Virus record (IMG/VR): IMGVR_UViG_3300020042_012255
Location: 1 to 38,764 of that record
Origin: a virus
Taxonomy: Duplodnaviria > Caudoviricetes
Reading direction: 5' to 3' (one strand)
Length of the DNA stretch: 38,764 nt
Shown piece after piece: positions 13,893 through 38,714 of the stretch (within the stretch, counting starts at the first letter, position 1; the number at the start of each line of letters is the position of its first letter). The notes beneath the pieces were generated by a model. It saw only the letters and a program-made list of their open reading frames with translations, was not told the DNA's origin and ran no database searches. Position numbers and translations under genes: made by a program.

Positions 13893-14148
13893 CTAAAAAA
13901 ATTTTTTTACAATTTTTTTCTGTTACTTTTGTGACCCTGTGTAATCATTACACATTGGCGGTGCAACTTCTTCGAATCGCACTCTCTATGTTTCCATAGA
14001 GTTCAGACTATCGCTTACCCTATTTCTAGAGTCCCTCTCACTTAGTCGTTCACGGTGGCTTTCGCCTTCCGCCCTGTTATCCGTCTGCTTTAAGCAGCGA
14101 GGACGTCCAAGTCAATCAGAGTGGGTTTAAAGTCAGCAGATAATGTTA
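13893..14148 (-). ncRNA. Group I self-splicing intron (256 nt, no homing endonuclease ORF)
   Basis: P1 GUCAGU/GCUGAC with U-G at the 5' splice site; P10 UUAUCU/GGAUGA; P3 CCCACUC/GAGAGGG; P7 GACUA/UAGUC; P8; P9 CUCUAUG-GAAA-CAUAGAG; terminal G. Removal restores CAG-TGG-ATG in frame. Confidence 0.92.
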
Positions 14149-14648: not shown

Positions 14649-14876
14649 TTAATTATCAATATTCTTATCTGGAAACGGAAAGTCTTCTGCATACATCCAC
14701 CAGTAGTTTGGCAAAAGATTTTCTTTCTTGCAGTAATTTATGTATTCATTCCAATCTACACCATGTGAGTCATATTTTCTCATTCCTATTGGATAATGTC
14801 CTTCATATGGAGCATCTATCTGAATGATTTCCCTTCCATCTTCAGGCTGACAATCTAATATATGATTCCATTTCAT
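14649..14876 (-). CDS. Small DUF551-like hypothetical protein
   Basis: MKWNHILDCQPEDG...YWWMY pattern; ATGA coupling with the scaffold gene. Confidence 0.55.
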   Translation of the reverse strand: MKWNHILDCQPEDGREIIQIDAPYEGHYPIGMRKYDSHGVDWNEYINYCKKENLLPNYWWMYAEDFPFPDKNIDN

Positions 14877-15586
14877 TTCCCACCCCTCATGACGCGTTGC
14901 ATCCGGTTCCAGTTGTCTTTTCTTCTTTGATCATCTAACATCACTGGAGCATGATCGCTTGTTGTTGTTACACCAGGAACTGACATGGCTTGAGGTTTAG
15001 AAAAGTTCTTTTCAGCTTTTTTCTGGTCTTTGTTATTAGTTGCGTTGGGCAAGAATCTCTTCACAGCCTTGTATACATTAGACCATTTATCAAATGAATC
15101 TGGTGCGTTCTTAAACGCTGCTGCAACTTCAGGATAGTGATATTCAAGATAGTCTAAATTCTCTTCAGAGCATACTTGATCAAAGTCATTATATGTTTGC
15201 GCTAAGCGTTGAGGAAACTCAGCATGTTCTCTTCGTACTCTTTCTTCTTCTGCTTTCTGTCTTTCTTTTGCAAGTGCTGCATCAATCTTCTTCTGAATAC
15301 GATCTTCTTCCGATTCATCTACATCGTAATTATTAACAGAGTTGTTAACGGGTTTATTGAGTAACGCTTCCATCGCAGCTTTGAGAGCTTCAGCCTCGGC
15401 AGTTTTTTGAGCTGCTCGTCTTTCCGCTTCTTCTTTTTGCTGTCTTTCTACTCGTCTAGCTTCTTTAAATTTACGCCAATCAATTTGCTGCGGATTTTCT
15501 TCCTCTTTTGATTCAACAGGTTGATTGTTTTGGGGTTGCGCTTGAACTGCTTTTTCTTCTATATTTGTTTCAACTTGTTCTTCCAT
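14873..15586 (-). CDS. Capsid scaffolding protein (putative)
   Basis: Acidic disordered N-terminus and long coiled coil; upstream of the capsid gene; AGGAG SD. Confidence 0.75.
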   Translation of the reverse strand: MEEQVETNIEEKAVQAQPQNNQPVESKEEENPQQIDWRKFKEARRVERQQKEEAERRAAQKTAEAEALKAAMEALLNKPVNNSVNNYDVDESEEDRIQKKIDAALAKERQKAEEERVRREHAEFPQRLAQTYNDFDQVCSEENLDYLEYHYPEVAAAFKNAPDSFDKWSNVYKAVKRFLPNATNNKDQKKAEKNFSKPQAMSVPGVTTTSDHAPVMLDDQRRKDNWNRMQRVMRGGK

Positions 15587-15597
15587 GATGGGCTCCT

Positions 15598-15864
15598 ATG
15601 TCTGATGATTCTGAATTTGATGTTAAAGAAGAGCTACAAAAGAATTTAGCTCACTATCGTCTCACTATGAGTTATCTTGGGGCTAATGCTCCAATCGGCG
15701 TTTTATGTTTACCCAACGTTATCGAAACTATTCTCGTCAAAGACGGATGTGTCAGGGTATATGACCTTATTAACCGCGATCTTAGTAAAATCAAAGGGCT
15801 CGGGGCTAATAGGCTTGACTTGCTCAGGACTCGACTTGATGAGTTCTTCACGATTGGCATTTAG
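15598..15864 (+). CDS. RNA polymerase alpha-CTD-like (helix-hairpin-helix) protein, antisense within the head operon
   Basis: PIGVLCLP..IETILVKDGCVRVYDL...LSKIKGLGANRLDLLRTRL parallels alpha-CTD PVDDLEL...L...I.DL...LLKTPNLGKKSL. Confidence 0.65.
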   Translation: MSDDSEFDVKEELQKNLAHYRLTMSYLGANAPIGVLCLPNVIETILVKDGCVRVYDLINRDLSKIKGLGANRLDLLRTRLDEFFTIGI

Positions 15865-16344
15865 ATATTCTGTTTCAGATAGCATAGTAATACCGTGTTG
15901 TTTGCGTATGTAAGGCCAAAATTTAAGCTTGAAGAATGCGTCGCACCAGCCTTTCATTTCTTGATATTTTTTATGCACATAAGACATTTCGGATAGCTCT
16001 GCCATTGTTAGCGCGTTCGGTAATGTCCAAAGTCTTTTAGTGAATTGTTGTTTTGTTTTGTTATACAGAAAAACTGCTTGGTTAGGTCTAGGAGAGGGTA
16101 GATATAAAAAGGCAAAGAACTTCCGTCTCATCACATTATGAATGAGTGGATCTCCAGCAATAACATAACCTACGCAGTATTCATCTTCGTTAAATATTGC
16201 TTCGTGACGATAGGCGCATATCATAAGTTCTTTTGCTATATCATCTGTAAGAGCATGACCCACTTCCAAAGCATCATACTTCGTAGTATCGCTGGCTGCC
16301 TTCACGGACTGCTCGCCAGCGGTTTTACGTTTTCTTTTCATCAA
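15709..16344 (-). CDS. Hypothetical protein of the head module
   Basis: 211 aa, globular-looking, coupled to the upstream small ORF. Confidence 0.75.
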   Translation of the reverse strand: MMKRKRKTAGEQSVKAASDTTKYDALEVGHALTDDIAKELMICAYRHEAIFNEDEYCVGYVIAGDPLIHNVMRRKFFAFLYLPSPRPNQAVFLYNKTKQQFTKRLWTLPNALTMAELSEMSYVHKKYQEMKGWCDAFFKLKFWPYIRKQHGITMLSETEYLNANREELIKSSPEQVKPISPEPFDFTKIAVNKVIYPDTSVFDENSFDNVG

Positions 16345-23499: not shown

Positions 23500-23706
23500 T
23501 TACTTCGGTGCTTTAGGAATAGGCATCCAATGACTCACTGAACAACGATCATTTACAAGCCGACAAGCCCATAGCCAATCGTCTTCGTCGGTTTCATTTG
23601 GGCAAAGAATAACATAATCTATGTTGAATTCTTCATCTTTATCCGAAAACGTAATAACATGAACATATTCTTCGGGCAATTGATCTTTTACACTTATCCA
23701 TTCCAT
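23500..23706 (-). CDS. DUF551-like protein
   Basis: MEWISVKDQLP...VSHWMPIPKAP. Confidence 0.8.
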   Translation of the reverse strand: MEWISVKDQLPEEYVHVITFSDKDEEFNIDYVILCPNETDEDDWLWACRLVNDRCSVSHWMPIPKAPK

Positions 23707-24107
23707 ATAAATCCCATTGGTTCTCCACCTTTGGCAAAAAATGTCCGCGTTTTCTTTTTATCTTTTTGTGAAGACTCTTTTACTTCTTCCTTTTTTTCAG
23801 GATTTCCTCTTATGTGATATATCATGGCAATTATTTCCTCTATGCATAGGTATTCATTGAGATTTGGCCAATAAATTGCATCATTTTCAACGGAAAATTT
23901 ATAGTCTTGTCTTTGAATCTCATTTGCGTGCCACAATTTTGGGAAAAACAAAATAGGGAAGGAAATACTTACGCCATTAACCATATCAATGACTAGGCAA
24001 TCTTGAGTAAAGTAAATGTATTCAATGTAAAATTTCTTTTCTTCAATCTTTGCCATAATCACATCCATTTTTTTTAGAAAAAAGAACTCTTCTAAGCTCA
24101 TAAACAC
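23694..24107 (-). CDS. DUF2442-like protein (start uncertain)
   Basis: L.IDMVNG..ISFPILFFPKLWHANEIQRQDY...AIYWPNLNEYLCIE fits the DUF2442 pattern. Confidence 0.75.
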   Translation of the reverse strand: MFMSLEEFFFLKKMDVIMAKIEEKKFYIEYIYFTQDCLVIDMVNGVSISFPILFFPKLWHANEIQRQDYKFSVENDAIYWPNLNEYLCIEEIIAMIYHIRGNPEKKEEVKESSQKDKKKTRTFFAKGGEPMGFIWNG

Positions 24108-26069: not shown

Positions 26070-26315
26070 TCAAAATCCGTCTCCAGATCCATCTCTATTT
26101 CCAGATCCATCTAGGTGTGCAAATCCATACCCATATGCATCTTCAAATCCAGATCCAGATCCAGAACCAAATCCATCTCCTTCTCCAGATACACATCCAG
26201 ATCCAGAACCGTAACTAAATCCAGATCCAAATCCATAGCCATGTCCAGAGCCATGTCCAGAGCCATGTCCAGAGCCATGTCCAGAGCCAAATTCAAAATC
26301 TATTACTCTTTCCAT
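26070..26315 (-). CDS. Gly/Ser-repeat (GSG/GYG/GDG) protein
   Basis: Low-complexity GX repeats, including the 12-nt tandem AGCCATGTCCAG x4 (26237-26284); coupled to the upstream gene. Confidence 0.7.
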   Translation of the reverse strand: MERVIDFEFGSGHGSGHGSGHGSGHGYGFGSGFSYGSGSGCVSGEGDGFGSGSGSGFEDAYGYGFAHLDGSGNRDGSGDGF

Positions 26316-36836: not shown

Positions 36837-38714
36837 TTAACATGCTAAATAACCGGTGAAAAAAGTTTGCATATTTAAATCTCCATATAAGTCATCTACT
36901 TTTCCTCCGCTGTCGGTGCTTTGAATTCTCACTGTACATACATCTCCTGCATCCATATCAACTAAAGCTGAAAGAGGATTACCGGATCTTGTAAATGAAG
37001 ATTGTGGAGTTGAATAAAAATAGTTTCTGTTGGATGTACCAAAACTTGTGTCAATGAGTGAAATATTAGTCCCCTGATAAAGAAGAGCACCGGCAGAAAA
37101 TTGATATCTTCCCGTAATCGGAGCTGTAAACACTCCAGTTGCGTTATTATAATTTCCTGCTTGGTCAAAAACTTCCGTATCAAAAATAATTGTAAAAAGG
37201 GTAAGGTCTCCGGTTACATTGTTAGAAACAAAACTTTTATAAGCGGAAAAAGCAGGCTGAAGAGGATAATTAAATTGTCCTGATGTATTAGCTCTCATTA
37301 CATTAGTAATACCAAGTGTGGTAGAAGCGCTTATTACAAGAGAATCAGAATCAGAGTTATCCACTCCTAAAGTCCAGTTCGTTACTCCTGTTACAGTAAA
37401 AGTTGCTACGGCATCTCCTGAGCTAGCACCACCCGTAGTAAGTTGCAATCTGGCATTAGATGCTGCGTTGGTATTATCAGTATTAGATACCGTTAAAACT
37501 CTTGCAGTACCAGCTGTTGTGCTTGTATAGGAAAAGTTATTAGCTACAGTAAGTCCAAGCGAAGGAACTCCAGTTCCGCTTGTAACCAGAACACTATTAT
37601 TAGCAGTAGCTAAACCAGCTACTGTGTTTGTAGCACTGGAATAGAGAAGTTGACTTACTGTCGTGGTTGCAGGATACGTTGCAGTTGACCAAGCAGGTGC
37701 TGTGGCATTTCCTGACAATAAAACTCTATTTGCAGCGGCTACCCCTGATAAAATAGCCATTGCACTTGATGTTGAATAAACAATTCCACCATTCGAAGCT
37801 GTCAAGTTTGCGTTTGTTCCCCCATAAACCAAAGGAATCAAAGAAGCATTCCAAGTTCCAGCTGTTATTACACCCGAGTTAGAGACCGTAAATTGAGAAG
37901 CAGAACCAGCGGATAAAGCTCCTATAAAATTAAATCCAAGAGCTGATCCACCTGTACCAAATGTAAGTGGTTGGCTGGGTGTCGAAGATAAAGAAATAGT
38001 TGCAGTATTTGTGCTTGCTCCAATTGCAAAACTAACCCCTCCAGCTCCTGCGTTACTTATGCTTAACGGAGTGAGCAAAGACCCAGAAGACCCTGAATGC
38101 GTCGCAACGGGAACCGACAAAGTAGTTGTCGATGGATTGTATGTCAAAGAGCTGTTTACGTTTATTCCTAAGTTTCCACTTGTTGCGCTCATAAACGCAG
38201 GGAAAAAGCTAGCATTCGTTGTTGTGGATGTTACTGTGCTAGTTGTAGACGTAGTAGCTGTCGTAGCATTAGAAGCTGTTCCTGTCAAGTTAGCTGTAAT
38301 AGTGCCTGCGCTAAAGTTTCCAGATCCATCTCTTTGAACTAGTGTGCTTGCTGTATTTGCGTTTGTGTACGCAAGACTTACTAAATTCTTGCTTCCGTTT
38401 GTTACTACAGCTTGTGATGCCGTAAGAGCTGTGATTGCTCCCAACTCAGTTATATTAGCTTGCACGGCTGATGGAAGTGTTGTACTTAAAGAAGGAACTC
38501 CCGATCCGTTAGTTACAAGCGTAGAATTATTAGCTATTGCAAGGGATGTAAGAGATCCAGATGCATTCCCTATTTGAATTGCGTTTTGTGTTGTTCCCGA
38601 CACGGAAACAATGGGATTTTCAGGGTCTGTGTTATCTACATTGATGTTTGCTCCAGCTACGATAGAATCAACCCCACCCGTATTTGAATTTGAAGTTACT
38701 TGATAATTAGACAT
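36837..38714 (-). CDS. Long tail fibre with C-terminal C1q/TNF-like domain
   Basis: T/S/A/G-rich shaft; QPAFSAY...FDTEVFDQAGNYNNATGVFTAPITGRYQF...MDAGD is C1q-like. Confidence 0.85.
   Translation of the reverse strand: MSNYQVTSNSNTGGVDSIVAGANINVDNTDPENPIVSVSGTTQNAIQIGNASGSLTSLAIANNSTLVTNGSGVPSLSTTLPSAVQANITELGAITALTASQAVVTNGSKNLVSLAYTNANTASTLVQRDGSGNFSAGTITANLTGTASNATTATTSTTSTVTSTTTNASFFPAFMSATSGNLGINVNSSLTYNPSTTTLSVPVATHSGSSGSLLTPLSISNAGAGGVSFAIGASTNTATISLSSTPSQPLTFGTGGSALGFNFIGALSAGSASQFTVSNSGVITAGTWNASLIPLVYGGTNANLTASNGGIVYSTSSAMAILSGVAAANRVLLSGNATAPAWSTATYPATTTVSQLLYSSATNTVAGLATANNSVLVTSGTGVPSLGLTVANNFSYTSTTAGTARVLTVSNTDNTNAASNARLQLTTGGASSGDAVATFTVTGVTNWTLGVDNSDSDSLVISASTTLGITNVMRANTSGQFNYPLQPAFSAYKSFVSNNVTGDLTLFTIIFDTEVFDQAGNYNNATGVFTAPITGRYQFSAGALLYQGTNISLIDTSFGTSNRNYFYSTPQSSFTRSGNPLSALVDMDAGDVCTVRIQSTDSGGKVDDLYGDLNMQTFFTGYLAC

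Follow-up and report, generated by a model that had tools for sequence, protein, structure and literature searches.

Antisense RNAs that block translation starts have been established in phages for sar of P22 and c4 of P1, as described in the excerpted text of PMC12197685. Another described system with which the present locus can be compared is the domain at the C-terminus of RNA polymerase's alpha subunit (alpha-CTD), whose determinant positions are taken here from the excerpted texts of PMC10853779 and PMC1874639. In the first of these excerpts, the 265 determinant for DNA is made up of R265, N268, N294, G296, K298, S299, and E302, and activators are bound via the 287 and 265 determinants. 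The excerpted text of PMC6614797 describes binding of alpha-CTD to both NusA-AR2 and NusA-NTD. The small gene discussed below bears on both systems, as it lies antisense within a phage head operon and encodes a protein that resembles alpha-CTD.

The window, meaning the whole 38,764-bp stretch of DNA that was analyzed, is a complete virus record with direct terminal repeats. The terminase and P22-like portal genes are found on the minus strand, and the genes for ERF, YqaJ, a replication initiator, and SSB are found on the plus strand. The minus-strand order runs from portal through two small genes to a 211-aa gene (15709..16344, referred to here as the partner), then to a 237-aa scaffold-like gene (14873..15586) that directly precedes the major capsid gene. 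Family searches with the scaffold-like protein gave no match, but its position and coiled-coil character suggest that it is a scaffold. The small gene is a plus-strand 88-aa ORF with an ATG start (15598..15864), and its direction is that of the replication genes and opposite to that of the late genes. There are 11 nt between its ATG and the scaffold-like ATG at 15586, and it overlaps the partner gene codon-to-codon for 156 nt (15709..15864), an overlap and a spacing that the original prediction had described and that the sequence bears out. Among 72 distinct relatives the overlap measures 120-222 nt, with a median of 129. The phage group is uncultured and of the P22-portal type; no cultured phage matching the partner protein was found, and the best portal match is 23%. 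Three genome-bin contigs that carry the partner gene, one of them phage-sized, were not accepted as host evidence. A 625-aa tail-region protein on the minus strand (36837..38714) has a C1q domain at its end and may inform the type of host. The same strand holds an 81-aa ORF made up mostly of Gly-Ser-Gly-His/Tyr repeats (26070..26315) and, within a cluster of small genes, a DUF2442 protein (23694..24107).

Over more than half of its length the small ORF has a conserved gene on the opposite strand, and the single 88-aa protein had no match in Pfam, PHROG, or PDB searches, both of which would be expected if the ORF were a shadow of the partner that is never translated. Relatives were fetched by patterns from the partner core outside the overlap, which makes their selection independent of the small ORF. 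The antisense ORF is intact and in the same phase in 80/80 viral loci (the best 80 of 135), in 76/83 metagenome and genome loci, the other 7 being cut by contig ends, and in 79/80 loci ranked on distant partners (the best 80 of 206), where the small gene and the partner are both broken in the remaining locus by a slip of a single base. These three sets overlap. Pooled, they comprise 243 loci, which group into 101 clusters when partner identity is set at 90%; the ORF is intact and antisense in 99 of these clusters, cut by a contig end in one, and disrupted by the single-base slip in one, though the relatives share ancestry and the counts are not independent events. Conservation of both frames, which had been proposed as a check, is thus borne out in clusters selected on the partner. 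By comparison, only 35 of 216 antisense 42-codon windows elsewhere in the partner are free of stops, so that retention of the ORF is far above chance. The codons TTA, CTA, and TCA, which read as stops on the antisense strand, are common in the rest of the partner and number zero inside the overlap. Disjoint pairs drawn from 101 distinct full-length loci gave dN/dS values outside the overlap of 0.07 (12 pairs, at least 80% identity), 0.13 (23 pairs), and 0.15 (50 pairs). Within the overlap, changes that alter both proteins occur at 0.28-0.41 of the rate of changes synonymous in the small gene and at 0.26-0.39 of the rate of changes synonymous in the partner, a low rate which argues that both frames are under purifying selection. 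Together with homology to a known domain, alpha-CTD, these patterns leave the shadow explanation with next to no probability, and the pattern of selection itself refutes it. The ORF at 15598..15864 is a real, selected gene.

The 88-aa protein consists of a variable acidic N-terminus, a helix at approximately residues 10-29, and an alpha-CTD-derived domain at approximately residues 30-87. A profile search with the family yielded 120 clusters, of which 118 were scanned and 2 partial matches left out. Among the short relatives, 14/96 match PF03118 (alpha-CTD) at E ≤ 0.05, 4 of them above the Pfam cut-off, and HHH_5 and RAD51D_N were each matched once; the long matches of the family profile carry PF03118 in 22/22 cases. 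When a 108-member profile was searched against the PDB, the first 25 of 35 matches were RNA polymerase alpha-CTDs (best E 1.4e-5, 1doq), with RAD51D (E 0.62) and NusA (E 0.64) far weaker. The match of the family to E. coli RpoA alone is weak (E 0.065). The AlphaFold model of the 88-aa protein (pLDDT 82) is a compact helical HhH fold as in alpha-CTD. The top Foldseek rows are alpha-CTDs with an rmsd of 1.0-1.3 Å, but their E-values are 0.14 or worse and non-significant. In a VIA fold comparison, alpha-CTD 1z3e_B reached Z 8.9 with an rmsd of 1.4 Å over 61 residues, but other HhH domains tie with it, namely AF1548 (Z 8.3) and the RAD51C N-domain (Z 8.2); NusA scored Z 6.2. Because the Foldseek E-values are non-significant and the Z-scores are tied, the claim of descent rests mainly on the sequence profile, by which descent of the small protein from RNA polymerase alpha-CTD appears clear. 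The protein does not have the N-terminal assembly domain of RpoA, by which the CTD is tethered to polymerase; its ORF stands alone, with the scaffold start as its limit in 98/98 loci. The original prediction of a stand-alone alpha-CTD-like gene was therefore correct, with the resemblance clear from the family profile and the structure model. Of the search proposed to check it, the Pfam part failed for the single protein, while the family profile found the alpha-CTDs of the PDB and the fold proved compatible.

What the protein has kept of alpha-CTD is a separate matter. Determinants were compared with E. coli alpha only, and the surfaces of the host's own alpha-CTD may differ. In the 265 determinant, the E. 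coli residue is found in 8 of 108 members at R265, 30 at N268, none at N294, 67 at G296, 12 at K298, 8 at S299, and 5 at E302, and the 88-aa protein retains G296 only. R265, N268, K298, and S299 align to V41, T44, N71, and R72 in the same register in three comparisons, which agrees with the earlier claim that these DNA-contacting residues are replaced. In most relatives the overlap, with its median of 129 nt, does not reach positions 265 and 268, so their loss was not forced by the partner. The 261 determinant for sigma region 4 (257-259 and 261) fares no better: D258 is found in 1/108, D259 and E261 in none, position 258 is E in 38/108, and E261 is replaced by C in 92/108. Finally, in the 287 determinant for activators (285-289, 315, 317, and 318), positions 283-285 are deleted, E286 is found in 4/108 and V287 in 10/108, E288 is replaced by D in 88/108, and the chain stops before 315-318. 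Residue by residue, this comparison shows that the family has lost the three classical E. coli contact patches for DNA, sigma, and activators.

These losses bear directly on the decoy proposal, in which the protein would act as a free alpha-CTD and titrate activators of the host or NusA. Clear descent from alpha-CTD speaks for it, as do the activator and NusA contacts described in the excerpts of PMC10853779 and PMC6614797, and a decoy aimed purely at proteins might have lost its DNA contacts. The 287 patch has the three-residue deletion and rarely keeps V287, the cysteine at 261 predominates, and the 265 patch is variable; with all three determinants altered, conservation is lowest on those surfaces that a decoy would need to mimic. 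The decoy is therefore improbable, and this part of the original prediction is weakened. The alternative suggested there, that the protein may be a late-transcription factor, has to be set beside the direction of the gene, which runs with the replication genes and opposite to the late genes. Conservation in the family falls instead on Y20 and L36 (106/108 each), P32 and R53 (104 each), F83 (98), and C37 (92), and L46 is kept to a similar degree, within 98-106/108. It is possible that these residues are structural and pack the extra helix on the domain.

Alternatively, the protein may be a small HhH DNA-binding protein, such as a repressor or architectural factor, with the coupling of start codons being compaction only. 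Such a binder would use its helix-hairpin-helix hairpin and the shifted basic residues K40, K64, K66, and R72. The G-h-G motif of the hairpin is kept in 65/108 members and lost in 43/108, and the DNA-facing surface is net positive in 81/108, including the 88-aa protein, and net acidic in 16/108, with some members having a WLDD hairpin. A basic residue at 265, G296, and a basic residue at 298 occur together in only 5/108. The tie between alpha-CTD and the AF1548 and RAD51C domains is in keeping with a DNA binder. DNA binding is thus possible, but probably not family-wide, and as an account of the gene we consider this rather unlikely.

The partner protein belongs to a large family, with 1198 matches and an invariant PSPRP motif. 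Its last helices and a low-confidence tail are encoded opposite the small gene, and the model is confident to approximately residue 171 and weak beyond. Distant fold relatives of 154-167 aa do not have the overlapped tail, which, together with the weak model past this point, suggests that the tail may have grown over the small gene. The fold gave no PDB match above Z 3.2 and no Atlas match, and the model is possibly that of an undescribed fold. It could be supposed that the small protein is a dedicated inhibitor, chaperone, or subunit of the 211-aa protein or of another head-assembly protein, with no part in transcription. The near-perfect co-occurrence of the two genes, an overlap selected in both frames, the position inside the head module, and the loss of all three transcription-related patches are each in line with this. 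The overlap, however, enforces co-inheritance without any binding, and the short fold relatives of the partner do without the overlapped tail. A dedicated assembly partner is accordingly quite unlikely.

In the neighboring major capsid gene, the coding sequence is split by a group I-like intron of 256 nt (13893..14148, minus strand) that has no homing ORF. The exon ends in T and the intron in G, removal results in an open 322-aa frame, and the match to Rfam RF00028 (23 bits, E 0.005) falls below the cut-off of 50. The capsid gene is interrupted in 6 of 71 relatives with enough sequence. In one of them (L002:3127-3684, minus strand) the interruption contains a 185-aa ORF with what is presumably a LAGLIDADG-like motif.

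The spacer between the back-to-back start codons is 11 nt long (15587..15597). In this genome its minus strand carries a strong AGGAG SD that would serve the scaffold gene, and its plus strand a weak SD-like TGGG (-2.4 kcal/mol) that would serve the small gene; the closest relative has TAGG. The earlier statement that the small gene has no clear SD holds for this genome but not for most relatives, which do have an SD-like motif. Their typical spacer is a dyad, e.g., GGAG-n-CTCC, in which the scaffold SD adjoins the ATG of the small gene and the SD-like motif of the small gene adjoins the scaffold start. Scored against a generic anti-SD motif, an antisense SD-like site of -3 kcal/mol or lower is found in 64/98 scaffold leaders, a type of count that overstates the number of events because scaffold starts were picked by best sense SD and the relatives are non-independent. 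At control genes the total is 15/327 (capsid 6/85, partner 2/98, portal 7/54, and the 62-aa gene 0/90). A dyad arm of at least 4 is found in 37/98 spacers vs 3-9 at controls, and in most spacers the loop is, by its sequence, too short for an intramolecular hairpin.

The start of the small gene lies 8-16 nt from the scaffold start in 92/98 loci and -2 to +2 nt from it in the other 6, and the most distant locus inspected (L063) has the same start-to-start spacing. Despite this fixed distance, the N-terminus ahead of Y20 spans anything from 12 to 48 codons, which argues that the start codon of the small gene tracks the scaffold start and not the domain. This comparison of loci shows the start codon to be locked to the scaffold start through what appears to be a two-way SD-like box. 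Tight start spacing could also be plain genome compaction. For a DNA-binding protein, the dyad-symmetric spacer could be an operator, but two SDs, each at the usual distance from one of two start codons, account for the dyad. In six relatives (L003, L004, L139, L006, L079, and L089) the start codons are directly adjacent or share bases (CATATG, CATG), and there the first codons of the small gene cross the scaffold SD.

The reading that we favor, tentatively and with somewhat less than even confidence, is that the small gene is a two-layer timer of head-gene expression, acting through both its RNA and its protein. Any leader that uses the plus-strand SD spans the spacer and so necessarily carries a sequence complementary to the scaffold SD. 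By geometry, the whole coding region of the small gene is complementary to the late message, and antisense complementarity across the scaffold ribosome-binding site is present in 92/98 loci. The original prediction had proposed that antisense RNA could tune the head genes, and the geometry for this is stronger than was claimed, as the leader covers the scaffold SD. The plus-strand mRNA would be made before the late phase from a promoter inside the scaffold gene; we infer the timing from the strand, which is that of the ERF, YqaJ, initiator, and SSB genes. The mRNA would pair with the late message over both ribosome sites, in the way that sar of P22 and c4 of P1 pair with their targets (PMC12197685), and mutual blocking of the two sites would hold scaffold synthesis back for as long as late RNA is not in excess. 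The protein, with its alpha-CTD fold and remodelled surfaces, is predicted to regulate transcription via a protein partner rather than as a faithful copy of alpha-CTD. Its new set of conserved residues would contact that partner; a role in transcription is plausible given the origin of the domain, and this is the weakest step of the proposal. A further-reaching form, in which a palindromic 8-16-bp box, acting as ribosome-binding site for both genes, makes a lineage-wide mutually exclusive switch, with the mRNA silencing the scaffold and the protein controlling the early-to-late transition via its new face, is unlikely. As a whole, the original interpretation is partly supported.

The promoter of the small gene likely sits within 14873..15586. 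At scaffold codons 2-11, -10-like hexamers are found on the plus strand in 56/98 loci vs 43.6 +/- 3.2 in synonymous shuffles, a slight excess that four control genes do not show. A stricter -10 test gave 17 vs 11 +/- 2.3, with a maximum of 18 in the shuffles, and is not above them. Promoter calling in the window returned none on the plus strand, and no conserved promoter, including a leaderless -10 box, was found among the relatives. A terminator of the antisense RNA was rejected as a candidate, as the hairpin and U-run found near the partner start in 17/96 loci can be explained by Lys/Arg codons.

In open-licence papers, judged by title and the start of the abstract, nothing was found on this family or layout, an absence which is not proof of novelty. 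By the three tested determinants, the protein appears to be alpha-CTD-derived and not a functional alpha-CTD, in what is seemingly an undescribed, doubly overlapped layout. The locus is a clean natural example in which a transcription domain of the host was taken up by a phage, lost the contact surfaces known for it, and became a fixed core gene at an unusual site, with overlaps on either side. The predicted two-way box for ribosome binding offers a simple, host-independent reporter test of head-to-head mRNA blocking, and a long overlap selected on both strands in approximately 100 lineages is a good model for the origin of antisense overlaps. It is also possible that gene callers drop such small antisense genes, as close relatives in the protein search numbered 18 for the small protein vs 1198 for the partner, although the sensitivity of such searches differs with length.

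Set against alpha-CTD itself (PF03118; 1doq, 1z3e_B), the small protein retains the core residues P256, L260, L262, L270, D280, L281, L289, and L295, but it is without the alpha N-terminal domain and carries an extra N-terminal helix, and the family has the three-residue deletion at 283-285 and a conserved set of its own (Y20, C37, R53, Y55, and F83) in place of the 265, 261, and 287 determinants. An alpha-CTD domain in a phage is not new per se. The phage alpha-CTD proteins in BFVD (A0A6J5MNY7, A0A6J5L490, and A0A5Q2WLP1) and the bacterial multi-alpha-CTD/sigma70-r4 proteins likewise have the domain outside RpoA. Those are 128-149-aa fusions or repeat proteins at 20-29% identity, whereas the present family is a separate one, mostly of 80-110 aa, in a fixed antisense position within the head operon. 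Sar of P22, OOP and aQ of lambda, and c4 of P1/P7 likewise show complementarity to a phage message, at the point where its translation begins or close to it, and the excerpted text of PMC12197685 describes them as small regulatory RNAs acting on regulator genes. Here, by contrast, the antisense RNA would be a predicted mRNA that itself codes for a protein and has a capsid-assembly gene as its target, and the same 8-16 bp would contain both ribosome sites.
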